64,000 nucleotides of DNA, from contig JBGFSC010000034.1 of assembly GCA_041694815.1 (NCBI GenBank), forward strand, positions 1 to 64,000, read 5' to 3'. The notes beneath the pieces are model-generated. The model was not told where the DNA came from, made no database searches, and was given only the letters and a program-made list of their open reading frames with translations. Below are positions 40,562 to 58,892 of the stretch, piece after piece. The translations under genes and the position numbers were made by a program. Numbering within the stretch: position 1 is the first letter of the stretch; every line of letters starts with the position of its first letter. Origin of the DNA: Elusimicrobiota bacterium. GTDB taxonomy: Bacteria; Elusimicrobiota; Elusimicrobia; UBA1565; JACRDR01.

Positions 40562-41356
40562 TCAATGGTCAAGCAAAAGCCACACAGCCGCAATGGACAG
40601 CTCGTAGAGCAGATAGGCGGGAACGGCCACCAGCACCTGGCTGAAGATGTCGGGCCCCGGAGTGACGATAGCGGCCAGGATCAACAATCCCAAAAAGACC
40701 TGGCGTCGATGCCGGGTCAACGTCTCCAAGCGCAAAAGCTTGAGGGCCGCGAGAACGAATAGGACGATCGGCAGCTGGAATAGCACCGCCAGGCCGAGCG
40801 TCAAATAGGCGAGGTAGCCGAGATAGGCGTTGAGCGTGATGTACGGGACCAGATAAGAGGTGGAGTAGGCCATCAGGAATTTCAGGCCGATCGGCCCGAT
40901 GATGAAAAGCCCGACCGCGCCGCCCGCGAGAAACAGGGCATAAGAGGCGGGGATGAGGCGGATCACCCAGAGCCTCTCTTGCGGCTTGAGGCCGATGGAT
41001 ACGAAGGCGATGGCCTGATAGAGCATCCACGGGAATGCCAACAAGATGCCGGCCACCATCGAGACCTTGACCTGGGCGAAAAACGGCTCGACGGGAGAGG
41101 TGTAGACCAGCGATTGGATAGGGGGGCGCAGCAATACAGGCAGAAGTTGCGGGTAGAGCGCGTAGGCGACGATCGTCGCCGTGGCCCATCCGGCCAACGA
41201 GCGGATCAGGCGAGTCCTGAGCTCCTCGAAATGCTCGAGCAGGGGGCGGGGAGGGTCTTGGACGGGAGCTTCAGGGTTTTGGAGGATTGTCTTCGAAGCC
41301 TTCGCGCAATCCGTCCTTAAACGCCTTGATGGACTTGCCGAAGGAGCGGGCGACAT
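40562..41356 (-). CDS. tatC: Twin-arginine translocase TatC (start uncertain)
   Basis: LLEHFEELRTRL, FQLP, TPGPDIFSQ, LYELSI. Confidence 0.93.
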   Translation of the reverse strand: MSPAPSASPSRRLRTDCAKASKTILQNPEAPVQDPPRPLLEHFEELRTRLIRSLAGWATATIVAYALYPQLLPVLLRPPIQSLVYTSPVEPFFAQVKVSMVAGILLAFPWMLYQAIAFVSIGLKPQERLWVIRLIPASYALFLAGGAVGLFIIGPIGLKFLMAYSTSYLVPYITLNAYLGYLAYLTLGLAVLFQLPIVLFVLAALKLLRLETLTRHRRQVFLGLLILAAIVTPGPDIFSQVLVAVPAYLLYELSIAAVWLLLDH

Positions 41357-41435
41357 CGGGCAGCCGGCTCGGGCCGAAGAACAGCAGGGCCACGATCAGG
41401 ATGAGTACGAGTTCCGGCCAGCCGATGTCGAACAT
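41271..41435 (-). CDS. tatA: Twin-arginine translocase TatA, 54 aa (absent from ORF track)
   Basis: MFDIGWPELVLILIVALLFFGPSRLPDVARSFGKSIKAFKDGL, read directly from sequence. Confidence 0.95.
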   Translation of the reverse strand: MFDIGWPELVLILIVALLFFGPSRLPDVARSFGKSIKAFKDGLREGFEDNPPKP

Positions 41436-43472: not shown

Positions 43473-44279
43473 TCAATAGGCCTTGGGGATCGTCTTGGGG
43501 CGGTTATAGGGCCGCCTTACCCGGCGGCTGAGGAATTTATGGCCGAGCCAATCGTAGATGCCGTCCGGCAAATGCGCCAAGAAATACTTGACGGGGTAGG
43601 ACAGCTGCCAAGGGAAATGTACCACGCGCCGGCGCTTCTCGATGCCATCGAGGATGCGCGCGGCGCCGTCTTCCGTTTCCAGGAGGAAGGGCATCTGCCG
43701 GGGATCGTTGCGGTCGGTCATCTCGCTTTTGACGAAGCCCGGGCAAACCGTGACCACATCGACGCCGGTGCCGATGAGGTCAATGCGGGTCGCCTCCAGC
43801 ATCGCGTTGAGGGCCGCCTTGCTGGAGCAGTAGGAGCCGGAATTGGGCAGGCCCCGCCAGCCGGCGATGCTGGAGATGCCGGCGATGACCCCGGACCCCG
43901 CCGCGAGCATGTCGGGGAGCACCGCCTCGATCCAATGCGCGACGCCGAACACGTTGATCGAGAAGGTCCAGCGGTAATCCTCCGCGGAGAACTCGCGCGC
44001 GTTCTTGGAATCTCCGACCCCCGCGTTGAGTATCGCCCAGTCGAGCCCGTTCCAGCGGGACTTGATCTCGGCGTAGTGCTTCCGGACTGCCTCGGGATCG
44101 CTCACGTCTCCGACGAGGACCAGGCACTCTCCGCCCGCCGCCTCGACCGCTCGGGCGGCCTCCAGCAACAGTTCCTCCCGGCGTCCCGTGATTGCCACCC
44201 GCGATCCCCGCCGGCCCAATTGGACGGCCATGGCGCGGCCGAGGCCGGAGCTGGCCCCGGTGACGAGGACGCGCCTCAC
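43473..44279 (-). CDS. SDR-family oxidoreductase
   Basis: TGASSGLG, LNAG, YCSSK, PGFVKS; GTGA overlap with nuoN. Confidence 0.93.
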   Translation of the reverse strand: MRRVLVTGASSGLGRAMAVQLGRRGSRVAITGRREELLLEAARAVEAAGGECLVLVGDVSDPEAVRKHYAEIKSRWNGLDWAILNAGVGDSKNAREFSAEDYRWTFSINVFGVAHWIEAVLPDMLAAGSGVIAGISSIAGWRGLPNSGSYCSSKAALNAMLEATRIDLIGTGVDVVTVCPGFVKSEMTDRNDPRQMPFLLETEDGAARILDGIEKRRRVVHFPWQLSYPVKYFLAHLPDGIYDWLGHKFLSRRVRRPYNRPKTIPKAY

Positions 44280-45694
44280 CGGACCTGCGCGGAGAGGCGA
44301 ACGCCGGCGATGAAGGGGTCGGGGTAGAGGCCGATCAGGAATATGGCCGCGGCGGCCAAGGCGAGCCCCGAGTAGAGGTAGAGGCTGGCGGGGACCGGCT
44401 GCGCCTTGCGCGCGGGCTTAAAGAACATGTGGTAGGTGATGCGTAGGTAATAATAAACGGAGACGACGCTGTTGAGCACGCCGACGGCGGCTAGGAGGTA
44501 GAGCTTCTCCTTCATGGCGGCGGCGAACACATAAAACTTGGCGATGAAGCCGGCCATCGGCGGTATTCCCGCCAAGGAGAGCAGGAAGAAGCTCATGAGC
44601 AGCGCGACGGGAAGATTTCGCGTCGCCAAACCGTCGTAGGCCTCCAGCTCGTAGGAGTCCTCGTTTCCGATGAGGATGGCCACGGCGAAGGCGCCGATGT
44701 TCATGAATACGTAGACGAGGCAGTAGAGCAGGAGGCCTTCCATTCCCGTCTTGCCGCCAGCGACGAAGCCGATGAGCATGTAGCCGGCCTGGGCTATCGA
44801 GGAATAGGCCAAAAGGCGCTTGACGTTCGTCTGGAATATCGCGGTAAGGTTGCCCACCGTCATCGTCAGCATCGCCAAGAACGAGAAGAGGGCGGTGAGC
44901 TCCAGTCCGCCGACCGGGATAAGCACGAGGAAGACCCGCAGCATCACCGCCAACGCGGCCACCTTGGGGGCTATGGAAAGGTAAGCCGTGACCGGGGTCG
45001 GTGCTCCCTCGTAGGCGTCCGGCACCCAGAGGTGGAAGGGAGCCAAGGAGGCCTTAAAGCCGAAGCCCACGGTCAACAGCAGCACCGAAAGGAGGAACAC
45101 GGGGCCTCCGGGAGCCTTGAGGGCCGTCAGGTTGGTGGTCCCAGTCGTCCCGTAGAACAGGGAGATGCCATAGAGCATGAGCGCCGATGAGAAGGCCCCG
45201 ATGAGGAAGTACTTGATCGCTCCCTCGTTGGACTTGAGGCTCTTGCGCTCGAAGCCCGCGAGGATGAAGGAGGAGATTGAGATGAGCTCCAGGCTCAGGA
45301 AGATGAGCAGCAGGTCCACGGCGGAGACAAGTAGCATCATGCCGGTGGTCGCGAGCATGACCAGGGCGGCGAAAGAGCCCAGATGCGTTCGGGACTCCGT
45401 CGCGTAATCGAGGGTAAGCAGTAGGGCCAATATGGTCGTGACCAGCACGATGATCTTAAAGAACACGCTCAGGGGGTCGAGCACCCACAAGGAGCCCGAG
45501 CTTCCTCCGCCCGCCTGCAAGGCCGGGTCCGAATAGGTGATGCCGATCATGCCCAAGGTCAGGGCCGCGCATAGGATGCCGACGTGGAAGAGGCCCTTGC
45601 CGTAGGAGCTGGGCGTCCAAAGGTCGGCCAAAAGCAGCAGCAGCGACAGCACCGCCAAGAGAATCTCCGGATAAAGAAGGTGTATCCCGGTCAT
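44276..45694 (-). CDS. nuoN: Complex I subunit N
   Basis: EGAIKYF, GFK..PFHLWVPDAYEGAP, KRLLAYSS. Confidence 0.95.
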   Translation of the reverse strand: MTGIHLLYPEILLAVLSLLLLLADLWTPSSYGKGLFHVGILCAALTLGMIGITYSDPALQAGGGSSGSLWVLDPLSVFFKIIVLVTTILALLLTLDYATESRTHLGSFAALVMLATTGMMLLVSAVDLLLIFLSLELISISSFILAGFERKSLKSNEGAIKYFLIGAFSSALMLYGISLFYGTTGTTNLTALKAPGGPVFLLSVLLLTVGFGFKASLAPFHLWVPDAYEGAPTPVTAYLSIAPKVAALAVMLRVFLVLIPVGGLELTALFSFLAMLTMTVGNLTAIFQTNVKRLLAYSSIAQAGYMLIGFVAGGKTGMEGLLLYCLVYVFMNIGAFAVAILIGNEDSYELEAYDGLATRNLPVALLMSFFLLSLAGIPPMAGFIAKFYVFAAAMKEKLYLLAAVGVLNSVVSVYYYLRITYHMFFKPARKAQPVPASLYLYSGLALAAAAIFLIGLYPDPFIAGVRLSAQVR

Positions 45695-47172
45695 TTGTTG
45701 AAGAGGGGTGCCAGGATATTGACCATGTTATTGATCGTCGGATTCATCAAATCCAAGGCCGCGCGGGGCCAAACGCCCAAATACACCGTCAAGACGGTCA
45801 AGGGAAGCACGGCGGCAAGCTCGCGTGCGTTGATCTCTTCTAATGATGCCCACTTGGTGTTCAGCGGGCCCAAGAAGACCTTTTGGATCATCCGCAGGAA
45901 AAAAGCCGCGGTGACCAGCACTCCGGTGACGGCTAGGATCGCGAAGATGGGGAATCGCTGGAAAGCCCCTAAGAAGCAGAAGAACTCCCCGAAGAAACCC
46001 GCCAGCCCGGGCAGGCCGAGGGAGGCGAAGCAGGTAAGCGTCATGAGCCCCGCGTAGACCGGCACCCGGGCAGCTAGGCCGCCGAAGGCGGAGATGTCCC
46101 GGGTATGCGCGCGGTCATAGACGACGCCGACGAGCAAGAAGAGGGCTCCCGTGATGAGTCCATGCGCGACCATCTGCAGCATGGCCCCGTTGAACCCGGT
46201 GGAGGAGACCGCGGCCAATCCCAGCAGGACATAGCCCATGTGGTTGACCGAGGAATAGGCGACCATCTTCTTCATGTCGGTCTGCGCCATCGCGCAGAGG
46301 GCGCCGTAGATGATCCCGATCGTGGCGATGACGAGGAGGTAGGGGATGAACCATTTAAACCCCAGGGGCAAGACGGCGTAGGAAACGCGCAATAGTCCGT
46401 AGCCGCCCATCTTGAGCAAGACCCCGGCGAGGATCACGCTCACCGCGGTCGGGGCCTCCACGTGGGCCAAGGGCAGCCAGGTGTGGAAGGGGAAGGCCGG
46501 CACCTTGATCGCGAATCCCAGGTAGAAGGCCAAAAAGGCCATGATCTGGAAATGTTCCGTCCAGCCCGGGTGCATCTTGGCCAGTTCGACGAGATCGAAG
46601 GTATGGGGAGCGGAATTGAAATACAAGGCTAGGATTCCCAGCAGCATGAATACCGAGCCGAAGAGGGTGTAGAGGAAGAACTTGATCGCGGCGAACTCCT
46701 TTTTGGGGCCGCCCCAGACGCCGATAAGGAAATACATGGGCACGAGCGTCAATTCCCAGAAAATGTAGAAGAGGATGAGGTCCAGGGCGGCGAAAACCCC
46801 GAGCATGCCCACGTCCAGCAGCAGGAACCAGAAAAAGTACTCCTTGACCCTCTCCTGGATGCTCAAAGAAAAAATCAAGGACAGCAACGTGAGCAACGTC
46901 GTCAGCAGCAGCAGGGGCAGCGAGAGGCCGTCGACGCCGAGGAAGTATTGGATATTGAAGGTGGGTATCCAGGCATGCCTCTCGACGAGCTGCATGCCGG
47001 TGGCCGATTCCGCGGTGCTAAAGAACGCCAGCGCGACGAGGGAAAGCAGGAAGGAAATTCCGGCGGCCCCCAACGCGGTCGCGCGGATAGCCGTGACCTT
47101 TTCCTTCGGGATGAAAAGCACGGCGACGGCTCCGATAAGCGGCGTGAAGATGATCCAGCTAAGAAGGTTCAT
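45691..47172 (-). CDS. nuoM: Complex I subunit M
   Basis: LGVDGLS, FWE, PFHTWLPLAHVEAPT, LLKMGGYG. Confidence 0.96.
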   Translation of the reverse strand: MNLLSWIIFTPLIGAVAVLFIPKEKVTAIRATALGAAGISFLLSLVALAFFSTAESATGMQLVERHAWIPTFNIQYFLGVDGLSLPLLLLTTLLTLLSLIFSLSIQERVKEYFFWFLLLDVGMLGVFAALDLILFYIFWELTLVPMYFLIGVWGGPKKEFAAIKFFLYTLFGSVFMLLGILALYFNSAPHTFDLVELAKMHPGWTEHFQIMAFLAFYLGFAIKVPAFPFHTWLPLAHVEAPTAVSVILAGVLLKMGGYGLLRVSYAVLPLGFKWFIPYLLVIATIGIIYGALCAMAQTDMKKMVAYSSVNHMGYVLLGLAAVSSTGFNGAMLQMVAHGLITGALFLLVGVVYDRAHTRDISAFGGLAARVPVYAGLMTLTCFASLGLPGLAGFFGEFFCFLGAFQRFPIFAILAVTGVLVTAAFFLRMIQKVFLGPLNTKWASLEEINARELAAVLPLTVLTVYLGVWPRAALDLMNPTINNMVNILAPLFNK

Positions 47173-47185
47173 GTTTTATTCCCCA

Positions 47186-49135
47186 TCAATGGATTAAGGT
47201 AAGCATCGCGAAAAGGCTGGCGGCCATGGCGACGTAAAGTAGGTACTCTTGGACCTGACCCCGAACGAGGCCGCGCAGTCCTCCTCCCGCCCATCCGGTG
47301 ACCGTCCCGGTGAGATCCACCGCGCCGTCGATAAATAGCGTGTCGATGAAGTTTTGTATCTCGGCCAACAGCAAACAGATCAATCCCCAAGCATCGACGA
47401 AGACTCGGTCTATGATCCGCTCGTCGATCCAAAAGCAGATCCGCGCCAGCACGTCGGATCCCTTGACCAACAGTAGGAAGAAATCGTCGAAGCCGTAGCG
47501 ATTCTCGAGCAGGGTAAAAATCGGGGACATCTTCGCCTTCAGATCGGCCGCGACGGCGAAATCCCCCCGGCCGTAGAGCCAATACGAGAGGCCCGCCGCC
47601 CCGGCGAACACGGCCAAGGCGGACCAAAGAAGGAATCCGGGGTGATGGCCCCCGTGCGAGGCTTCCGGAAGATGCACCAAGGCCTCGAAGGCGCCTGTAT
47701 GACTGAGCAGGAATCCAGCGAGCGCCGACAGGACGGCCAGCACCCAAAGGGGAACCGTCATCACCGATGGGGATTCATGGGCGTGGTCATGCTTGGCGAT
47801 GTCCCGAGGGTTTCCCGCGAAGGTCATGAACATCATCCGGAACATGTAGAACGTGGTCAGACCAGCGGTAAGCAGGGCCACGGCCCACATCAACGGGCTA
47901 TGCCCATAGACGGCGGCCAGTATGGCCTCCTTCGAGTAGAATCCGGAGAATCCCGGGAAGCCCGTGATGGCCAAGGTCGCGATGGCCATGGTCACGGAGG
48001 TGCTCAGCATCTTTTTCGACAGTCCGCCCATCTCGCGCATGTCGTTAGTATGCATGGCGTGGATGACGGAGCCGGCGCCCAGAAACAGGAGGGCCTTGAA
48101 GAAGGCGTGCGTGGTCAAATGGAAGAGCGCGGCGGTGTAGCCGGCCGCGCCAACCCCCAGGCCCAGCATCATGTAACCGAGCTGGCTGACGGTGGAGAAG
48201 GCCAGTACGCGCTTGATATCGTAGGCCACCAAGGCCATTGTCGCGGCCATGAAGGCCGTCAGCAGGCCGACCCACGCCACGATGTCGGAAGCCAAGGGGC
48301 TGGCGGCGTAGAGGAACTGGGTGCGGGCGACCAGGAATATGCCCGCGGCGACCATCGTCGCGGCATGGATCAACGCGGAAACCGGGGTCGGGCCCTCCAT
48401 GGCGTCGGGCAGCCAGATGAACAACGGGACCTGCGCGGATTTACCAATGGCTCCACAGAGCAGCAGCAGGCCGGCGGCCGTGGCCACCTCGACCGGGAGG
48501 GCCACGGCTCCCATCGACGCCCGCTGGGCGAGCATCGGGATTTCGAAGGTCCCGGCATAGGCGAACAAGAGCAGAAGGCCGAGATAGAATCCCAGGTCGC
48601 CGAGCTTGGTGGTGATGAAGGCTTTTTTGGAGGCGTAGGCCGGGCCGGGCTTCTCGAACCAGAATCCGATAAGCAGGTAGCTGGAGACCCCCATGAGCTC
48701 CCAGCAGGCGAAGACGACCAATAAGTTGCTCGAGAGCACCAGGCCGAGCATAGAAGCCGTGAAGAAGCCGACGTACGCGTAAAAACGCTTGAAGCGGGTG
48801 TCGCCGTGCATGTAGCCCAGCGAATAGATCTGGACCAGGAGGCTGACCAACGTGACGACGAAGGTCATGAAGACGGCCGGGCCGTCGAGCAGAAGCCCCA
48901 GCGAGACGGGGTAGTCCCCGAACGTGAACCACGGCAGGGAGGGCGCCGGATAAGGCATGGACACCTGATGGGTCAGGGCCTTGTACAGGATGCTGCAGGA
49001 GTCCAACCAGCAGAAGCCCATCGCCCCGATGGATAGCAACGGCATGTTGGACTTGGGACCCTCCTTGCCGAACAGGAGGACGATGATGGAGGCGATCAGC
49101 GGGACCAGGGGGATCAGGTAGGCGTGGTCAATCAT
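47186..49135 (-). CDS. nuoL: Complex I subunit L
   Basis: WLPDAMEGPTPVSALIHAATMV, HAFFKALLFL. Confidence 0.96.
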   Translation of the reverse strand: MIDHAYLIPLVPLIASIIVLLFGKEGPKSNMPLLSIGAMGFCWLDSCSILYKALTHQVSMPYPAPSLPWFTFGDYPVSLGLLLDGPAVFMTFVVTLVSLLVQIYSLGYMHGDTRFKRFYAYVGFFTASMLGLVLSSNLLVVFACWELMGVSSYLLIGFWFEKPGPAYASKKAFITTKLGDLGFYLGLLLLFAYAGTFEIPMLAQRASMGAVALPVEVATAAGLLLLCGAIGKSAQVPLFIWLPDAMEGPTPVSALIHAATMVAAGIFLVARTQFLYAASPLASDIVAWVGLLTAFMAATMALVAYDIKRVLAFSTVSQLGYMMLGLGVGAAGYTAALFHLTTHAFFKALLFLGAGSVIHAMHTNDMREMGGLSKKMLSTSVTMAIATLAITGFPGFSGFYSKEAILAAVYGHSPLMWAVALLTAGLTTFYMFRMMFMTFAGNPRDIAKHDHAHESPSVMTVPLWVLAVLSALAGFLLSHTGAFEALVHLPEASHGGHHPGFLLWSALAVFAGAAGLSYWLYGRGDFAVAADLKAKMSPIFTLLENRYGFDDFFLLLVKGSDVLARICFWIDERIIDRVFVDAWGLICLLLAEIQNFIDTLFIDGAVDLTGTVTGWAGGGLRGLVRGQVQEYLLYVAMAASLFAMLTLIH

Positions 49136-49150
49136 GGCGTGGCGTTTCCA

Positions 49151-49456
49151 TTAGCCCTTGAGCAGGTTATAGTCCTCGGCATAGACGGTGTTGAGCTTGC
49201 GGTAGATGGCCAGCACCAGTGCCAGCCCCACGACCACCTCAGCCGCCGCGATGGTGATGTTGAAAATCGTCACGGCCTGCCCGAGAAGCCGGTCCGGGTG
49301 CAGGAACCGGTTAAAGGCGACGAAGTTGATATTCGCGGCGTTAAACATCAGCTCGATCGACATCAGGATCCCGATCACGTTGCGGCGGGTCAAGGCCCCG
49401 AAGAGCCCGATCGCGAACAGGCCGGCGCCGAGGGCGAGATAGTGGGTGAGCGTCAT
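49151..49456 (-). CDS. nuoK: Complex I subunit K
   Basis: RRN..MSIELM..AAAE. Confidence 0.96.
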   Translation of the reverse strand: MTLTHYLALGAGLFAIGLFGALTRRNVIGILMSIELMFNAANINFVAFNRFLHPDRLLGQAVTIFNITIAAAEVVVGLALVLAIYRKLNTVYAEDYNLLKG

Positions 49457-49941
49457 TCGGCCTCCGCCCGCGAGAAGAGGATCGCGCCCACGAGGGCCGC
49501 GAGCAGCACCAGCGAGATCAATTCGAAGGGCACCGCGAGATCGGTCAACAATAACCGCGCGATTTTCGCGGTACCCGGCTCGGGGCCCGCGGCGAGGGTC
49601 ACCGAGCGGTACGCCTTAAGCCCCCTGAGGAGCCCGAAGAGCGTCACGCCGCAGACGAGCAGCGCGGCCAGCCATTGGGCGTTGCTCTGGCGCAGGACTA
49701 AGTCGGAATGGCGGGCCGCCAGGAGAACGACGAAGAGCACCAGCACGTTGATGCCGCCGACATAGATGAGGATCTGCGAGGCAAAGACAAAATCGGCGCC
49801 GAGCAGCGCGAAGATCCCGGAGACCCCCAGGAGGCTCACGCCGAGCATCAGTGCGGAATGCAGTACGTTGCGGAAGGTCACGACGCAGAATGCGGCGCCC
49901 AAGGTCATCACGGCGAAGGTGTAGAAGGCGACCCAAGTCAT
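49453..49941 (-). CDS. nuoJ: Complex I subunit J
   Basis: NVLHSAL, QILIYVGG, PFELIS; ATG at 49941. Confidence 0.93.
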   Translation of the reverse strand: MTWVAFYTFAVMTLGAAFCVVTFRNVLHSALMLGVSLLGVSGIFALLGADFVFASQILIYVGGINVLVLFVVLLAARHSDLVLRQSNAQWLAALLVCGVTLFGLLRGLKAYRSVTLAAGPEPGTAKIARLLLTDLAVPFELISLVLLAALVGAILFSRAEAE

Positions 49942-49942
49942 C

Positions 49943-50452
49943 CTAGCGCCGGGCCTGCACGGTTTGGATCTGCATCTGCCACTCGGGGGCCAGCCATTGC
50001 TTGAGTTTACGGTTGAAATACTTGCCCACGAAATCGAAGTCCTTCTTCCAGCCCCGTACCATCTCGTCCCGGTTGGCGAAGACCAGCTCGTAATCGAGGG
50101 AATGCCAGACGGACTTGGGCTTGGTGGGGCAGGCCTCCTCGCAGAGCCGGCAGAAATTGCACTTGCCGAAGTCAATCGTATACCAGTTTACCTTGGCGAT
50201 CTTCTTGCCCGCCTCGTTGACCGCGTTCTCTAAATCGATGCAAGAGGAAGGGCAGGCCTTCACGCAGAGCGAGCAGGAGATGCAGGTCTCGACGTCGAAG
50301 AGCAGCGCCCCGCGGAAGCGCTCGAAAGGCACGAGTTTTTCCTGGGGGTATTGGACCGTGATCGAAGGCTTCCACAAGTAGCGGAAGGTTATCCAAAGCC
50401 CCTTGCAGATGTTGGCGGCCGCCGCGGCGACGTCCTTGAAATAATCGATCAT
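49943..50452 (-). CDS. nuoI: Complex I subunit I
   Basis: TVQYP, CISCSLCVKACP, CNFCRLCEEACP. Confidence 0.95.
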   Translation of the reverse strand: MIDYFKDVAAAAANICKGLWITFRYLWKPSITVQYPQEKLVPFERFRGALLFDVETCISCSLCVKACPSSCIDLENAVNEAGKKIAKVNWYTIDFGKCNFCRLCEEACPTKPKSVWHSLDYELVFANRDEMVRGWKKDFDFVGKYFNRKLKQWLAPEWQMQIQTVQARR

Positions 50453-50503
50453 GTCACTGCCTCCCCCACGGGGAGGTAAGTAGCCGAAGGGGACTAATCG
50501 TTT

Positions 50504-51874
50504 TCATATTAATAGATATATGCTCGCCAAGGCGATATTCACGAAACTCCAGGGTAGCAAGAACTTCCAATTGAAATCCATGAGGCGGTCGACCCTAAAG
50601 CGCGGGAAGGTCCAGCGGAACCATAGGAAGCAGAAGACGATCCCCAGGGTCTTGGCCAGAAACCAAGCCCAGCTCGGGATCCAGGTCCAGGGGGCCCAGG
50701 GCAGGGGAGAGCCACCTCCTCCCATGAAAAAGGCCGCCGTCAGACAGGAGGCCAGCAGCACATAAGCGTACTCCGCCAGGAAGAAGAGCGAGAATTTCAT
50801 CCCGGAGAATTCCGTGTGGAATCCCGCGACCAGCTCCGATTCGGCCTCCGGAATGTCGAAGGGGACTCGGTTGGTCTCGGCGACGGAGGCGATGAGGAAG
50901 ATCAGGAAGGAAATCTGGCCTACCACGGGATAAAAGATGTACCAGCGGGGAATCACGCCGAACCAATACCCGGCCTGGGAATCGGCGATGCGTGTGAGGT
51001 TGAGGCTGCCGGCGAACATCAGCACGGGAACGATCGAGAAGGAGCGGGGCAGCTCGTAGCTGACCAGCTGGGCGGCGGAACGAAGCCCCCCCAGCAGGGA
51101 GTACTTGTTGCCTGAGGCCCATCCCGCCATGACGATGCCGATGACGGAAACCCCGGCGACCGCGAAGATATAGAGCACCCCGACGTCGATGTCGGCGGCC
51201 GCCAGCTCTCGGCCGAAGCTAATCGGCGCGAAGGCCAGGATCGCCGGGATGACCACGATCACGGGCGCTAAGCGATGCACCCATCGGTCCGCGGCGATAG
51301 GCGTAATGTCTTCCTTAAATAGGAGTTTGATCCCGTCGGCGACGGTCTGCAGCCACCCGTGCCAGCCTCCGACCGTCATGGGACCCAGGCGGCTTTGGAT
51401 ATGGGCGGAGATTTTGCGCTCCCACCAGACGAGGAAGATCGGCGCGACCAGGATGATATGCAAAACAACGAGCACCTTGAGCAGTATCCAAACCCCGCTC
51501 GCCGCGAAAGAGGAGGAGAGCAGCCCGGAAACCGCCGATTGGAGGAGAGCGCCCCACGGGGCCAATTCCCCGACGGCCGCCGTGAGCCCGAAGGCCCCCA
51601 GCAGCAGCGCGCCCAAGGCCAGCGCGCCTCGGCGATAAGAGCGCAAGGACCAAGGAGCCTTCCAACGTTGGGTGGGCCAATAACGGTCATGGGTCAAAAG
51701 GGCGCCCTTGTAAGCGGGGTTGAACACGGGCTCCTTGATCTCCACCTTGGGTTTCGGCGCCGGCTTGGCGGGCGCGGCAGGGGCCGGCGGCACGACGGCG
51801 GCGGCGGGCGGAACCTTCGCGGAGGAGCCGTTGGAGGCGGCGTGCTTATCGGCGGGGTTCTTGGGAGCGCTCAT
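50504..51874 (-). CDS. nuoH: Complex I subunit H with ~125-aa N-terminal extension
   Basis: ERKISAHIQSRLGP, ADGIKLLFKE, ETNRVPFDIPEAESELV; TGATG coupling to nuoD. Confidence 0.95.
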   Translation of the reverse strand: MSAPKNPADKHAASNGSSAKVPPAAAVVPPAPAAPAKPAPKPKVEIKEPVFNPAYKGALLTHDRYWPTQRWKAPWSLRSYRRGALALGALLLGAFGLTAAVGELAPWGALLQSAVSGLLSSSFAASGVWILLKVLVVLHIILVAPIFLVWWERKISAHIQSRLGPMTVGGWHGWLQTVADGIKLLFKEDITPIAADRWVHRLAPVIVVIPAILAFAPISFGRELAAADIDVGVLYIFAVAGVSVIGIVMAGWASGNKYSLLGGLRSAAQLVSYELPRSFSIVPVLMFAGSLNLTRIADSQAGYWFGVIPRWYIFYPVVGQISFLIFLIASVAETNRVPFDIPEAESELVAGFHTEFSGMKFSLFFLAEYAYVLLASCLTAAFFMGGGGSPLPWAPWTWIPSWAWFLAKTLGIVFCFLWFRWTFPRFRVDRLMDFNWKFLLPWSFVNIALASIYLLI

Positions 51875-53007
51875 CAGCGGTCCACCTCGCCGAGCACGAT
51901 ATCGATGGAGCCCAGTATGGCAATGACATCGGCCACCTTCTTTCCCTCCAGGATTTCCTGGAGGATGGCCAGGTTGATGAAGCTGGGGGCGCGCACGTGC
52001 ATCCGGTAGGGGCTCTGCCCACCGTCAGAGACCAGGTAGATGCCGAGATTTCCCCTCGCCCCTTCCACATGCGCGTAGGCCTCGCCGGGTTGGGGCTTGG
52101 GGACCTTGGCCACTCCCTTGGCCATGAACTCCCCCTCCTTCATCTGATCGAGGCACTGCTCCACGATGCGAACGGACTCGCCCATCTCGCGCACGCGGCA
52201 GAAATAGCGGTCGAAGCAGGAACCGCCCTTGCCGAGCGGCACCTCGAAGCGAACTTTATCATAGGCCGCATAGGGCTCGAACTTGCGCGCGTCATAATCC
52301 ACCCCCGAAGCGCGAAGGTTCGGTCCGGAAAGGCCCCAAGCGATGGCTTGATCCGCGGAAACGAGGCCCACGGTCTTAGTCCGGTCCTGGAAAATGGGGT
52401 TATAGGTCAACAGGGAATCATATTCCTCGAGACGCGCCTTGAAATAATCAAGGAATTCGCGGGTCTTGGAAGTCCACTCCGGCGTTATGTCGCTCATAAC
52501 CCCGCCCAGGCGGATATAGTTGTAGGTCAGGCGCGCCCCGCAGGCCATCTCGAAGAGATCGAGCACCATCTCCCGCTCACGGAAGGCGTAGAGGAACGGG
52601 GTGAAGGCGCCGATGTCGATACCGTAGGTGCCGAAGAAGAGCAGATGGCTCGCGATCCGATTGAGCTCGCACATGATGGTGCGCAGGTAGTTTGCCCTCT
52701 CGGGGACCTGCAGGTTCATGAGCTTCTCGGCCGCGAGGCAGAAGACCAGGTTGTTGGGCATCGCCGCCACGTAGTCCCATCGGTCGGTCAAGACGACGCA
52801 ATGGTGGTAGCCCCGAACCTCGGAGAGCTTTTCGGTGCCGCGATGAAGATAGCCGACGTCGGGAACGGCCTTGACGATCACCTCGCCCTTGACCGTCAGG
52901 CCGACCCGAAGCACCCCGTGCGTGCTCGGGTGCTGGGGGCCGAGATTGATGAAAAGCTCGTCTGTTTTGAGGAACTCGTCCTGCCGGGTGACAAGGGGAG
53001 CGCTCAT
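51874..53007 (-). CDS. nuoD: Complex I subunit D
   Basis: NLGPQHPSTHGVLR, GYLHRGTEK, GEVDR C-terminus. Confidence 0.96.
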   Translation of the reverse strand: MSAPLVTRQDEFLKTDELFINLGPQHPSTHGVLRVGLTVKGEVIVKAVPDVGYLHRGTEKLSEVRGYHHCVVLTDRWDYVAAMPNNLVFCLAAEKLMNLQVPERANYLRTIMCELNRIASHLLFFGTYGIDIGAFTPFLYAFREREMVLDLFEMACGARLTYNYIRLGGVMSDITPEWTSKTREFLDYFKARLEEYDSLLTYNPIFQDRTKTVGLVSADQAIAWGLSGPNLRASGVDYDARKFEPYAAYDKVRFEVPLGKGGSCFDRYFCRVREMGESVRIVEQCLDQMKEGEFMAKGVAKVPKPQPGEAYAHVEGARGNLGIYLVSDGGQSPYRMHVRAPSFINLAILQEILEGKKVADVIAILGSIDIVLGEVDR

Positions 53008-53573
53008 CGGTCGAACCGGTCCGGAACGTGCTCGTAATCCTTGCGGAGGGGGTGGCCTTGGATGAAGTCCGGAGTCAGTATCTTGGTGAGATTCGGATGC
53101 CCTTCGAATCGTACCCCAAGCAGGTCGAAGACCTCCCTCTCCTGCCAATCGGCGGTCTTGAAAAGACCGGCCAGGCTGGGCGCCGAGGGGTTCTGCCGCG
53201 GCAACTCCACCTTCAGGAACAGCTTGAGCTTCCCCTTCAAGTGGCTCGCGCAGTAGACAAGCTCGATCGCTTCGCGGTAAGGAAAGCCCGGGGTGGCCGT
53301 CGGGGCCTCGACTTGGGGCGTGGCCCCCTCGGGAAGGAAGGCGTTGGGGTTCGGGTCCATGACGTAGCCCTTCGGGCTGACGGGCCCCTTGTAATCGACG
53401 GCGGTGATCATGTCGAGATATTCGAAGCCTTGCTTCTTCAGCCAGGAAAAGACCGCGCCGAGCGCGGAGGGATCGGAAAGACGGACGGTAGGGTAGTCCT
53501 TCACCGCGACCGATGTCTTCTCAATCCCGGCAAACTGCGCGCCGAGCCGAGAGAGCAGTTCTTCCGCGTTCAT
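53004..53573 (-). CDS. nuoC: Complex I subunit C with Pro-rich insertion
   Basis: [29 protein letters not shown]. Confidence 0.93.
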
Positions 53574-54136
53574 CCGAGCGCCTTGGCGGGATCGAGCTCC
53601 CGACTGCCCGAGGCCTGCTGCGGCGCGGCGCCGCGGGTGGCCGCGAGTTTCATCTTCATGATCTTTTCCTGCAGCTTGATCACGGCGTATTGCAGGGCTT
53701 CCGGGCGAGGCGGGCATCCGGCGATATACACGTCCACCGGGATAATCTTATCGACTCCCTTGACCACGGAATAGGAATCCCAGTAAGGTCCCCCGCAGTT
53801 CGCGCAGGAGCCCATGGAAATGACGAAGCGGGGCTCGGGCATTTGGTGGTAGATCTGGATGATGGGATCGGCCATCTTCTTAACCACCGTGCCCGCGACG
53901 ATCATCACGTCCGCCTGCCGCGGCGTGGGGCGGGGGATGACCCCCATGCGGTCGAAATCGAAACGCGAGGCATAGGAGGCCATCATCTCGATGGCGCAGC
54001 AGGCCAGGCCGAAGGTGAGGGGCCAAACGGAGGATTTGCGTCCCCAATCGATGACGGTGTCGGCCGTCGTCAGCAGGAGTTCGCCGCCCGGAAGTCCCTT
54101 GGCGACGCCCGGCAGCCTTTCGAGTATCACTCCCAT
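53570..54136 (-). CDS. nuoB: Complex I subunit B
   Basis: [23 protein letters not shown]. Confidence 0.96.
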
Positions 54137-54483
54137 GCCAACGCCCCCTTGCGCCAGGCGTAAACGAGCCCGAGGAACAAAATGGCCAGGAAGATCATCA
54201 TCTCCACGACGGCGAAGGCGCCGAGAGAGCGCGCCTCGACCGCCCAGGGGTAGACGAAAAGGGTTTCCACCTCGAAGATGACGAAGATAAGGGCGTACAC
54301 GTAGAAACGGATATTCGTCTGGACCTCGGTGGTGCCGGCGGCTGGCATGCCGCATTCGTAGGTGGTGCGCTTGATCGGATCTTCCACCCGCGGGCGGAAA
54401 AGATACGCGGCCGCCAGTGTGACGGCCGCGAATAGCACGCCCACGACCGCGAAGGCGAACAAAGTCGCGTAGCCGTGGATCAC
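54127..54483 (-). CDS. nuoA: Complex I subunit A
   Basis: [18 protein letters not shown]. Confidence 0.95.
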
Positions 54484-55550
54484 CCGATTTTCTCTTGGAT
54501 CAAAACTTTATAAGCCTCGCCCATTCCGTCCGGATGCAATAGCGTCTTTATTTTATTTTTTTCCTTATATTCTTCCAAGCCCTCTCCCTTGGGCATCCAT
54601 TCCATGATCCCGCGGTCGAGGAGAAACCGTGAGAGGGTGGTATAGGAATCCAGGCGCAGGCCGGAGCGCTCCCCCTCCGCGATCAAGGCGTCAAAATCCA
54701 CGGAGGCGGTCAGGTCCTGGCGTCCTGGCTTGGCGAATAGGGAATGGCCCGTCCTGTGCCTGTAAAAGGCGCGCGGCGGGTTCGGATCCTGCGGGGCGAA
54801 GCGCTTTCCATAATCGATGGTGATGACCGTCCCGGCGATGATCGTTTCTCCCAATTGCCGTACCCACTCCAAAGCCTCTAGGTTGACGGCATGCCGGCCC
54901 CCTTCGGGAAGCTGCGGGCAGACCCTGGCGGCGATAGGCAGCAGTTCGCTGCGCGAAATCTCGCCCAGCTCGGCGCGCACCCCCTCGCCCCCGCGGATCC
55001 CGGTTCCGCGGGCCCCGGAAGTGCTCACGTAGACCTCCCGCATCTTGCCGCCCTGCTTTTCCAGGAGATGGACGGCAAACGCATCGACGAGCTCATTGGA
55101 CAGGAAGACTCCCACGCATGGGGGCACGTCGCGGAGGCGGTTGTAGCCGAGCACCCTCTCCGAGGAGGCCGCCGAAAGTATGCTGCTAAGTAGCTGCGAC
55201 TCTGAGCGTTCCACGAAAACGTAGCGAATCTTGGCCGCCCAATCCCCGTGGCGCTCGCGCAGGCAGCGTAAGACCTGCGAACCTAGCGCGCCATTGCCCG
55301 AGCCCATCTCCACGATGAAGTACGGCCCGGGCACCTTGCGCGATTCCAAGGCGTCCAGGCGCCGGACGATCTCCAGAGTCAGGATGGCGGCGAAGCAGCC
55401 GTGGAGTTCGGCGGCGGTGTAGAAGTCGGCCGTCGGGACCCGCGATTCGTAATAGCCGCTCTTGGAATACAGAGCGGACTCCATGTAATCGTGAAACGTG
55501 ACCATCGGGGGCGTCTCCCCCCGGGCCCGCTCAGAGGAGGTCTTCGGCAC
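54480..55550 (-). CDS. MidA/NDUFAF7-family SAM-dependent methyltransferase (start 55550 GTG or 55505 ATG)
   Basis: [58 protein letters not shown]. Confidence 0.9.
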
Positions 55551-55713
55551 CCAGGGTCTTCTTTTTGCCGTCCGCCTTCACTTTTTCAATGGAGGCGGAA
55601 ACGATTCCCTCAACCTTCCGCGACAGTCCGTCGATATAATCGGCGCCCGTCCTGAAGCCGGCATCCTTGACGGTTTTCTTAATCTTGCTGACCACCACCA
55701 ATGTCTCAGCCAT
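55531..55713 (-). CDS. Bacterial histone-fold protein, 60 aa (Bd0055/HBb-like)
   Basis: [68 protein letters not shown]; LVVxSKxK start and KT..D end match bacterial histone singlets. Confidence 0.85.
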   Translation of the reverse strand: MAETLVVVSKIKKTVKDAGFRTGADYIDGLSRKVEGIVSASIEKVKADGKKKTLGAEDLL

Positions 55714-55755
55714 CCGTTGTGTTCTCCTTGGGTAGGTATGACGAACCGTCACTCC

Positions 55756-55784
55756 ATTTTACAATAAGTGTCCAAAAGGGTCAA
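55756..55784 (-). promoter_or_regulatory. Near-consensus sigma70 promoter upstream of the histone gene
   Basis: TTGACC (55784-79), 17-bp spacer, TAAAAT (55761-56). Confidence 0.85.
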
Positions 55785-56185: not shown

Positions 56186-57319
56186 CTAACTTTTGATGCG
56201 CTTGGCATACTCGAGGTTGAAGCGGTAGCCCTGCTCCACGGCCTGGATCAAGCCGCCGAAGGCGTCGAGCTTGCGGCGCAGCGCCGCGACATGCTCCTTG
56301 ATTCTCGAGAGCTCCTCTTGCGGCCAGGCGCGAGATAGCTTTTTGAAGAGTACCTCCTCGTCTAGGACCTTCCCGGAGGCGCTCATGAGGTAGATGACGA
56401 GCGCCATCTCGGCGCCGCTCAACTCGAGCGTCGTATTTCCCGAAATGACGAGCCGCCGGCCTAGGAAATCCAGGAAGACCCCACCCGAGGATATCCCGCG
56501 CGCGTTCGCGCCGAAGCGGCCGCGCCGCAACAGCCCTCGGATCCGAGCCTGGAGCCGCAGCGGCGGGTCCGTCTTGGCCAGGAAATCGTCTGCGCCCATG
56601 TCGATGCATTGCGCCTCTTTGAGCACCCCGGAATCCCCGGTCAGCATGAGTATGGGCATCCGGAACCATTTTTGCTGCTCCCGCAGCCTGCGGCAAACGT
56701 CCTCGCCGGACATACCAGGCATATTGAGGTCCAGGATCACGAGATCGGGAACCTCGTGTTCGACCAGGAATACGCCTTGGCGCCCGCTCGAGGCCCACAG
56801 GAACTCGTACGGCTGGTCCTTAAAAAGGATGCGAAGACGCTCGACCGTATCCTCCTCGTCGTCGATCACCAGGATCGTGAATACCAGCCCCGGCCCGGGG
56901 ATGGTCTTCGAGTTTTTCGGCGCCGTCCGCCGGCGGAGCAGGGCCTGGATCTGCCTCAGAAGGGGGTGGAGTTCCTGCTCCACGATCTGGGATTTAGGGA
57001 GGAAGGAGTCGGCTCCGGCGTAGCGGATGTTCATCTCGTCGCTCAGGCCGTCGAAGACGCCCGAAATGGCGATGACCGGTATGCTTCTGGTGTCCTCCCT
57101 GCCCTTGAGCTCCCTGAGCGTTTGTTCGCCCGACTTCCCCCCCGATTCGAGCAGCAGGTCGAGGATGATCAGTTCCGGATGCTGCCGCGCCGCCAGGGCT
57201 AGGCCTTCCGCCGCGCTCGAGGCCCCCAGGACGGCGAAACCGGACGCCTCCAGGAAACGGCGGAGCATTTCCCGGAACGGGACATGATCGTCTATGATGA
57301 GCAGTAGCGGTCGGTCCAT
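56186..57319 (-). CDS. Response regulator with two receiver domains and an OmpR-like DNA-binding domain
   Basis: IIDD..ILDLLL..GADSFLPK; VIDD..ILDLNMP..GADDFLAK; HVAALRRKL..GYRF. Confidence 0.9.
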   Translation of the reverse strand: MDRPLLLIIDDHVPFREMLRRFLEASGFAVLGASSAAEGLALAARQHPELIILDLLLESGGKSGEQTLRELKGREDTRSIPVIAISGVFDGLSDEMNIRYAGADSFLPKSQIVEQELHPLLRQIQALLRRRTAPKNSKTIPGPGLVFTILVIDDEEDTVERLRILFKDQPYEFLWASSGRQGVFLVEHEVPDLVILDLNMPGMSGEDVCRRLREQQKWFRMPILMLTGDSGVLKEAQCIDMGADDFLAKTDPPLRLQARIRGLLRRGRFGANARGISSGGVFLDFLGRRLVISGNTTLELSGAEMALVIYLMSASGKVLDEEVLFKKLSRAWPQEELSRIKEHVAALRRKLDAFGGLIQAVEQGYRFNLEYAKRIKS

Positions 57320-57352
57320 CGATGAGAACTATAAGGGGCTAACGGGAAAAAA

Positions 57353-57796
57353 TCAAGGAGAAATTTGACCGCCGTCCGCAGCCGGATTTTCGGAGCTCTG
57401 AGGCTTGGTCCCCAGGATCCGGTGCAGCGCGACCGCGAACGTGGCGGGATTGACCGGCTTGCTCAGGAACTCCACGACATTCGGCTCCCGGCGCATGAGC
57501 TCGATCGCCGAGGAATTCATGCCGCGCGCCGTGATTACCATGATCGGGATCCGGGATGTTTCGCCCGACTGGATATGGCGCAGGATCTCGTAGCCTCCCA
57601 TCCGGGGCAGCATGAGATCCAGGAGGACCAGGTCCGGCATGAGGGCCTGGATTTTGTCGACGGCCTCTTGGCCTTCGGAGGCCGTCTCGACCTTGAACCC
57701 CTCCTTCTTGACGAGATAGCTTAGCAGGTCGCGGATGGCCGGGTCATCATCAACGATGACGACGCTCTTGCCAGGATTCTTAGTTTCTTCCGTCAT
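57353..57796 (-). CDS. Single-domain response regulator
   Basis: VDDD, LLDLMLP, ITA, SKP. Confidence 0.92.
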   Translation of the reverse strand: MTEETKNPGKSVVIVDDDPAIRDLLSYLVKKEGFKVETASEGQEAVDKIQALMPDLVLLDLMLPRMGGYEILRHIQSGETSRIPIMVITARGMNSSAIELMRREPNVVEFLSKPVNPATFAVALHRILGTKPQSSENPAADGGQISP

Positions 57797-57818
57797 TGGT
57801 GAATTAGCATGAAGGGCT

Positions 57819-57891
57819 TGGCGCCGGGAGGATTCGAACCTCCGACCTAGCGCTTATGAAACGCCCGCTCTAACCCCTGAGCTACGGCGCC
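57819..57891 (-). tRNA. tRNA with CAT anticodon (elongator Met or Ile2); CCA not encoded
   Basis: GGCGCCGTAGCTCAGGGGTTAGAGCGGGCGTTTCATAAGCGCTAGGTCGGAGGTTCGAATCCTCCCGGCGCCA; full cloverleaf; paired G1-C72 argues against initiator. Confidence 0.93.
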
Positions 57892-58467: not shown

Positions 58468-58665
58468 TCAGAAATCCTCCAGGTGAAATCCAGCATCCTT
58501 AAGGATGCGGTGCAACAGACCCTTTGGAATATCACCGGAATGGATCGGAATGACTGTGCGATATTTCGTCGTCGGATGTTGGAGCACGAGATGGGAGCCT
58601 TTCTGCCGTTTTTCGATGAAACCGTTCTTTTTTAGGAAGCGAACGACCTCGCGGGCTGTCGCCAC
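58468..58665 (-). CDS. hicA: HicA-family mRNA interferase toxin
   Basis: LKKNGF..RQKGSH..VIPIH..DIPKG..ILKDAG. Confidence 0.93.
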   Translation of the reverse strand: MATAREVVRFLKKNGFIEKRQKGSHLVLQHPTTKYRTVIPIHSGDIPKGLLHRILKDAGFHLEDF

Positions 58666-58892
58666 TAGGCGGGAATAGCGATTTGATTTACTTCGACGAT
58701 CTTAGCGGCGGATTTAGGCAGCGGATCGTGGTCGGCTTGGCAATCCTCGATATAAAGCTTGAGAGCTTCCGTTAAATCCTTCTTGGCCAGGTCCGCCGTT
58801 TTCCCGGAACCGTAAACACCCGGGAGGTCCGGGACATAAGCCCAGCAGGATTTCCCCTCTTTGACGACGACAACAGGATAATGCAGAGTCAT
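58665..58892 (-). CDS. hicB: HicB-family antitoxin, short form without DNA-binding domain
   Basis: YPVVV..AYVPDLPG..G.T..EAL..YIE. Confidence 0.92.
   Translation of the reverse strand: MTLHYPVVVVKEGKSCWAYVPDLPGVYGSGKTADLAKKDLTEALKLYIEDCQADHDPLPKSAAKIVEVNQIAIPA

Follow-up and report, generated by a model that had tools for sequence, protein, structure and literature searches.

What places the gene for a bacterial histone at the head of a set of respiratory genes, and on which of its neighbours does the methyltransferase encoded between them act? Both questions are raised by a 64,000-nucleotide (nt) stretch of contig JBGFSC010000034.1 from an Elusimicrobiota bacterium (hereafter the window; its home genome is labelled G000), in which a 60-amino-acid histone gene is followed by the gene for a MidA/NDUFAF7-family methyltransferase and by the genes for an 11-subunit complex I. 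Here we show that the arrangement is real, class-wide and made of known parts. The explanation that we regard as probable, from the sequences compared here, is that class Elusimicrobia has an operon of its own, made up of the histone gene, a slot for an accessory methyltransferase and nuoABCDHIJKLMN, in which transcription from the histone promoter would read through into complex I. The slot would hold a complex I helper, MenG in lineages whose menaquinone comes from the futalosine route, MidA in a clade without that route. While the complex is being assembled, MidA would dimethylate NuoD Arg56, which lies next to cluster N2, just as NDUFAF7 acts on NDUFS2, and NuoD Thr58 and Trp77 together with NuoB Tyr118 would be kept either for recognition of the site by the enzyme or to fit the methylated arginine. 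The histone would be an ordinary nucleoid protein that shares a promoter with respiratory genes and would not be a substrate of MidA. The features of the locus, in window coordinates, are as follows:

55756-55784, minus strand: promoter-like site of the sigma70 type, TTGACC-17-TAAAAT, upstream of the histone gene, with 10 of 12 consensus matches
55724-55729, minus strand: Shine-Dalgarno sequence of the histone gene, AAGGAG, from the sequence
55531-55713, minus strand: histone gene, HBb/Bd0055-type, alpha3-truncated, 60 amino acids, by sequence match and fold model
55506-55523, minus strand: GC stem of 6 bp without a U tail, over the MidA Shine-Dalgarno sequence, local and unconserved
54480-55505, minus strand: gene for a MidA/NDUFAF7-family S-adenosylmethionine (SAM) methyltransferase, PF02636, COG1565, 341 amino acids, by profile and fold model
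54550-54578, minus strand: weaker promoter-like site, 9 of 12, within the MidA gene just before nuoA, unconserved
54127-54483, minus strand: nuoA, overlapping the MidA gene at GTGA, by profile searches
53570-54136, minus strand: nuoB, with the codon of Tyr118, which co-varies with the presence of MidA, at 53783-53785, by profiles and column test
53004-53573, minus strand: nuoC, by profile searches
51874-53007, minus strand: nuoD, with the codon of Arg56, the predicted methylation site, at 52840-52842, TIGR01962 above cut-off
50504-51874, minus strand: nuoH, with a long N-terminal extension, by profile searches
49943-50452, minus strand: nuoI, by profile searches
49453-49941, minus strand: nuoJ, by profile search
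49151-49456, minus strand: nuoK, by profile search
47186-49135, minus strand: nuoL, by profile searches
45691-47172, minus strand: nuoM, by profile searches
44276-45694, minus strand: nuoN, by profile searches
43473-44279, minus strand: SDR oxidoreductase gene, overlapping nuoN, a local passenger
57819-57891, minus strand: tRNA-Met(CAT), with two response regulators and a small open reading frame (ORF) between it and the histone gene here

The three components on which the original prediction was built, a histone-fold gene, a MidA-type methyltransferase gene overlapping nuoA by GTGA and a NuoD with an intact HRGTEK motif, are all present. Sequence comparison and structure prediction both confirm the 60-amino-acid ORF as an HBb/Bd0055-type histone. 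It matches PDB 8fvx (HBb) with a phmmer E-value of 3e-9, the matches to HLp (1e-6) and HTkC (5e-4) being weaker; Pfam and NCBIfam gave no family for it, and its named homologues are Elusimicrobiota. The AlphaFold model (predicted local distance difference test score, pLDDT, of 86) has helices at residues 3-17, 24-48 and 56-59, and HBb, HLp and HTkC are its top Foldseek matches, with template modelling (TM) scores of 0.69-0.78 and probabilities of 0.99-1.0; the best E-value is 3.6e-3 (HBb, first in rank, TM 0.77), with no match reaching 0.001. Helix alpha3 is truncated in the model, and it is cut to 3-4 residues in the bacterial-dimer alpha3 histones, the HBb/Bd0055 category defined by sequence clustering, which already includes members from Elusimicrobiota (PMC11390915; this and the other published sources are cited from the accessible part of their text). 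With HBb/Bd0055 of Bdellovibrio bacteriovorus (PDB 8fvx, 9ezz) the protein shares sequence, fold, the short alpha3 and residues S9, K10, K12, K16, K52 and T53, and in the histone alignment K10, K12, K52, T53 and D58 are invariant. It differs in carrying Arg at the position of HBb N22, and in that the Arg of the RKT...D motif is Lys in 77 of 80 relatives (KKT for RKT). A second, divergent histone of 66 amino acids with an RKT...D motif and its own Shine-Dalgarno sequence lies elsewhere in G000 (C37:13553-13720; L111:1483-1683); it is face-to-face-like by eye, and weak second matches occur in seven other genomes.

The gene after the histone is likewise confirmed, by profile and by predicted fold, as a member of the MidA/NDUFAF7 family. 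It matches PF02636 with an E-value of 2.4e-37 (129 bits against a curated cut-off of 23.3), and its start is placed at ATG 55505, where homologues begin, rather than at GTG 55550, which was rejected. The model has a pLDDT of 94, and its top six Foldseek matches were to 4g67, 4f3n, 5zu0, 1zkd and 5ztz, that is, to COG1565 proteins and Dictyostelium MidA (E 1e-23 to 1e-25, TM about 0.8), the next fold following at 1e-8. The SAM-binding motif is present, and E66, G68, G70, G72, N137, E138, D141, D231, G233, D264 and T266 are conserved. Symmetric dimethylation of the corresponding arginine of the 49-kDa subunit has been demonstrated in human, Pichia and Paracoccus, and E. coli lacks it (PMC3750175); the accessible text of PMC11522691 describes it as unreported in bacteria other than Paracoccus. 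Family, fold, SAM motif and the HRGTE target motif in the 49-kDa subunit are thus shared with known NDUFAF7/MidA enzymes acting on NDUFS2/Nqo4 (PDB 5zu0, 5ztz, 1zkd, 4g67), whereas here the gene lies within the nuo operon, the complex has 11 subunits and the phylum is not proteobacterial. Divergent PF02636 matches also occur within long open frames (>600 amino acids) in L121, L122, L125 and L126, two of which start in a signal-peptide-like manner.

Profile searches gave the window cluster the order nuoA-B-C-D-H-I-J-K-L-M-N, 11 subunits without nuoEFG. For an 11-subunit complex I without the NADH module, use of ferredoxin has been hypothesised in the literature. Subunit D is NuoD and not a hydrogenase large subunit (TIGR01962 above cut-off), and it reads GYLHRGTEK, the motif Arg being R56. 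The only NuoF-domain match in G000 falls in a second complex I cluster (C49:15355-28500, L127), which encodes 14 subunits in the order J-K-L-M-N-A-B-C-D-EF-G-H-I, with NuoE and NuoF fused and electron transfer flavoprotein (ETF)-like genes adjoining; its NuoD reads HRAFEK. Both types of complex I have been described for lineage IV Elusimicrobia (bioRxiv 10.1101/765248). The window NuoH (50504-51874) has about 120-130 extra N-terminal residues that include a hydrophobic stretch, and a homologous extension occurs in several MidA-clade loci. The Glu of HRGxE, a residue said to be highly conserved, gives way to Ser, Cys or Gln in some MidA-linked NuoD proteins (L031, L032, L037, L040, L044, L067, L087-L089 and L092).

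To what extent is this arrangement conserved? Across 301 genomes of the phylum, with slot contents counted by hand from gene coordinates, the histone was present in 86, of which 49 belong to class Elusimicrobia and 37 to other classes. It lies upstream of nuoA in 43 of the 49 class genomes, and in 43 of the 44 that have both genes; five of the six unlinked genomes have no nuoA orthologue. The gene between them varies, being MidA in 26 genomes (one with an insert before nuoA), MenG in 14 and absent in 3, so that the adjacency of histone, MidA and nuoA originally predicted is found in 26 of the 49 and it is the histone-nuoA pair that forms the conserved part. A second set, of 80 loci and overlapping the first, held 42 with MidA in the slot, 22 with MenG, 5 with the histone directly before nuoA and 11 unlinked; in L053, which was kept outside the trees, nuoA follows the histone with no further nuo genes. 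PF02636 was above cut-off in none of the 37 histone-bearing genomes of other classes, two of which have a nuoA orthologue far from the histone. A histone-nuo link among Bdellovibrio-like histones was also rejected, with nuo, MidA or MenG within 3 kb in none of 80 metagenomic loci (47 of them with at least 1.5 kb downstream). Since the slot gene varies between MidA, MenG and none, and the other classes and the Bdellovibrio-like loci are without the link, the conserved link is that between histone and nuoA, confined to class Elusimicrobia within what was searched. In two small-genome families neither the histone (f4, 0 of 88 genomes; f14, 0 of 89) nor any nuoA match was found; the histone was likewise not found in any of six genomes of genus g6, and family f5 has it in 2 of 22, with MidA in 0 and nuoA-like genes in 18. 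Upstream of the histone, at a distance of up to 400 nt, a tRNA-Met gene occurs in 26 of 42 MidA loci and 4 of 5 direct loci, and in 0 of 22 MenG loci. Many of the Bdellovibrio-like histone genes (L149-L228) end head-to-head with an apparent NAD-dependent DNA ligase gene, as read from sequence.

A literature search, with most subscription journals and all supplements outside its reach, found no description of a histone-nuo operon. The accessible texts of PMC9006661, PMC10627809, PMC3829151 and PMC9036352 do not describe this operon, and gene-cluster figures in the supplements of PMC11390915 or PMC10627809 could show this locus.

The MenG genes of the slot are above the TIGR01934 cut-off in all three cases tested. 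MqnA/MqnD-family genes occur in all 14 MenG-slot genomes and in none of 32 genomes of the window's order; the matches in family f8 are all weak, and full-length MenG was not found in the 37 MidA-clade genomes searched. Because the MidA clade is also without MqnA/MqnD, MenG is a genuine quinone enzyme, gone from that clade together with its pathway, and we read the slot as a position for helpers of complex I. It is plausible that histone-menG-nuoA is the ancestral order, the MenG state being found in two lineages outside the MidA clade with the root left open. G000 has two complex I clusters and no recognisable quinone synthesis: MqnA/MqnD, MenG and MenA were not found in the whole genome, and its only UbiA-family match (L148, C14:51715-55455) is heme O synthase-like from its sequence and lies beside a CtaA-like gene. 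Weak MenA-like matches occur in three relatives. G000 is possibly a quinone auxotroph, or possibly uses an unknown pathway.

The genomes that have lost the slot gene address the question of what MidA acts on. In a tree of NuoB and NuoD with the HRGTEK motif masked, from which identical rows and rows with fewer than 250 aligned NuoD residues had been dropped, six genomes with the histone directly before nuoA (L056, L066, L129, L229, L100 and L081, the last two identical to G192 and G090) nest among 42 MidA-bearing rows. Full-length slot-type MidA was not found in any of the six, G090 having two divergent PF02636 matches only, inside long unrelated frames. Five of the six are rejected as a single clade (approximately unbiased test, p 4.6e-6), and because the branching of MidA largely agrees with that of the Nuo proteins, loss of the gene is the simpler explanation. 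Of the 302 NuoB and NuoD columns that are conserved in MidA-bearing rows, only three differ in five or all six of the MidA-less genomes, namely NuoB Y118F (6/6), NuoD T58V/I (5/6) and NuoD W77L (5/6), whereas 1000 random sets of six MidA-bearing rows gave no column above four changes. The histone has 27 conserved positions, and each of them is altered in one of the six at most. NuoB 118 is Tyr in all 41 MidA-linked and all 20 MenG-slot rows, and Phe in all seven further MidA-less genomes with the same complex type. By constant offsets to the Yarrowia numbering of PMC8042128 (R56 to R121, R76 to R141, Y79 to Y144 and C111 to C150), NuoD W77 falls between R141 and Y144, and NuoB Y118 seven residues past the N2 ligand C150; as placed by these offsets, all three co-varying residues belong to stretches that surround cluster N2 and Arg56, the methylatable residue. 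That the loss of MidA is accompanied by changes in NuoB and NuoD around N2 and by none in the histone argues that MidA serves complex I, and NuoD Arg56 is most likely its target.

The presence of MidA across the window's order points the same way. Among 101 genomes, PF02636 is found in 75 and a NuoD orthologue in 81. Two of the 20 without a scored NuoD are cut contigs that carry histone-MidA-nuo; the other 18 are without MidA, and eight of these, from three genera, retain an orthologous histone. MidA goes when this 11-subunit complex I goes, and because those eight genomes keep the histone without NuoD and MidA, it follows complex I and not the histone.

Several observations pull in the other direction. 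Branch lengths play no part in the random control, and the trees were built in quick mode. A sign test over independent pairs gave p 0.125 for Thr58 and a second pair test a median of 0.0625, neither significant and both underpowered; MenG-slot rows were left out of both, and L230, whose contig begins inside nuoA and which likewise yielded no histone, was excluded from the column test and coded MidA-less in the second pair test. The MidA-less genome L129 retains T58 and W77, and in the f6/f10/f12 clade, which has MidA elsewhere, NuoD has V58 and D or N77 in all 11 rows with NuoB Y118 kept. Most of family f5 has neither histone nor MidA, and on co-occurrence alone the two substrates therefore cannot be told apart. 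It is possible that the unlinked MidA of the MenG-slot clade has a different substrate, as NuoD there is without T58 and W77; in L113 and L116, from that group, this gene lies directly after queG and a glycerophosphodiester phosphodiesterase gene.

It had been suggested that MidA could methylate the arginines in the GFRTG and LSRKV motifs of the histone. A fuller version would give MidA two substrates, NuoD Arg56 and histone Arg21 (of GFRTG), with a mark on the latter tying chromatin state to complex I assembly; if true, an assembly factor of complex I would here be writing a mark on a bacterial histone. In its favour, Arg21 is found in all 80 relatives and aligns with HBb N22, the residue with the most DNA contacts in simulations (PMC11317129), 41 of the 42 MidA-positive genomes also have the histone, and the two genes are largely missing together in f5. 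However, Arg21 is fixed whatever fills the slot, and equally so where MidA is absent, in the 37 histone-bearing genomes of other classes and in the six nested losses. No position of the histone changes in step with MidA; in eight genomes the histone persists without MidA or complex I, and in 14 the slot holds MenG. Arg32 (of LSRKV) is present in only 2 of the 80 relatives and in none of the 42 that are MidA-linked. We therefore do not uphold the suggestion, and consider a second, histone substrate very improbable. We give equally little credence to the idea that the slot enzyme is not a protein methyltransferase at all, having taken MenG's place to methylate a quinone or another small molecule. 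MidA does occupy exactly the position of MenG, in a clade whose 37 searched genomes yielded no full-length MenG, but that clade has also lost MqnA/MqnD, so that MenG went with its pathway. Furthermore, all 14 MenG-slot genomes have MidA elsewhere in the genome and hence both enzymes, the fold is that of MidA, and the co-variation maps to the NuoD arginine site. Methylation of NuoD Arg56 thus remains the reading that we prefer.

Whether histone, MidA and nuo genes are expressed together is a separate matter. As originally predicted, a near-consensus promoter and a strong Shine-Dalgarno sequence precede the histone gene, the promoter-like site ranking top of 7 sites across 15 kb where shuffled sequence yields 2.7, and no U-tailed terminator was found between histone and MidA in the window, where the intergenic gap is 25 nt. 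The closely coupled run of genes from nuoA through to the SDR gene is present in the window, but the SDR gene follows nuoN in 0 of 15 relatives, and was rejected as a conserved member. Across loci histone and MidA are a median of 23 nt apart, and no more than 30 nt apart in 25 MidA loci, MidA and nuoA overlap in 32 of 40, and several MenG loci have stop-start overlaps. Ahead of the histone, promoter-like sites (at least 9 of 12 matches within 150 nt upstream) exceed expectation: 12 of the 43 MidA loci have one where 1.6 would be expected, as do 11 of the 22 MenG loci where the expected number is 2.4. On spacing, co-transcription of histone, MidA and nuo genes is probable. Two candidate regulatory elements were rejected as conserved features. 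The hairpin after the histone is no attenuator of this kind, since the 81-nt stretch that holds it folds no better than shuffles (z 0.63) and stems of at least five GC pairs occur in 10 of 43 MidA loci. An internal nuoA promoter is found in 1 of 42 MidA loci (0.5 expected), the one being this window.

A very abundant nucleoid protein is needed in other amounts than a membrane complex, and the adjacency could instead reflect a conserved order of genes that are not co-transcribed, with the histone effectively monocistronic and midA-nuo transcribed separately. The alpha3 histones have been described as single-gene operons (PMC11390915), and HBb/Bd0055 differs as a single-gene unit from the Elusimicrobia histone as first gene of a respiratory operon. 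U-tailed terminators follow the histone in 2 of 43 MidA loci, promoter-like sites stand before nuoA in the window itself (54578-54550) and in 4 of 22 MenG loci (1.6 expected), and the link does not hold in f5 (G210) or in other classes (G020, G065). Nevertheless, gaps of at most 30 nt and stop-start overlaps leave scant room for a terminator plus a promoter, and the order outlives both the exchange of the middle gene and several deletions of it, so that we judge separate transcription unlikely. Given co-transcription, chromatin and respiration may be co-regulated; because the link fails in f5 and other classes do not have it, we lean slightly towards a promoter shared by inheritance rather than selected co-regulation.

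Two response-regulator genes and a small TPR-like ORF (56186-57891) separate tRNA-Met(CAT) from the histone, and since the tRNA and the histone adjoin in many relatives these genes are possibly an insertion at the tRNA; homologues of the TPR-like ORF occur in five loci. Upstream of the tRNA, two short ORFs (58468-58892) resemble a HicA/HicB toxin-antitoxin pair by eye, and a tatA-tatC pair (40562-41435) lies downstream of the operon.

A precedent for the placing of the methyltransferase gene is found in Ca. Actinomarina, where a gene string runs heliorhodopsin, 11-subunit nuo, NDUFAF7 (bioRxiv 10.1101/2021.02.01.429150). There too NDUFAF7 lies beside an 11-subunit complex I, with a second, 14-subunit complex and an unrelated head gene, but that head gene encodes heliorhodopsin and not a histone, and NDUFAF7 follows nuoN rather than preceding nuoA. 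Histones in conserved multi-gene operons are known from the RdgC and IHF-related classes (PMC11390915), in first position for the RdgC histones; those are other classes with DNA-related partners, whereas the partners here are respiratory.

A histone gene heading a respiratory operon across a bacterial class raises the testable question of whether nucleoid and respiratory proteins are co-expressed. MidA has been lost repeatedly, and these losses serve as a natural knockout series, which points to NuoD T58 and W77 and to NuoB Y118. As the role of the dimethyl-arginine next to cluster N2 is stated to be open (PMC8042128), these three residues offer direct mutational tests in Paracoccus or Yarrowia. 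Collectively, the likely range of this arginine modification is extended to complex I without the NADH module, outside the Proteobacteria.

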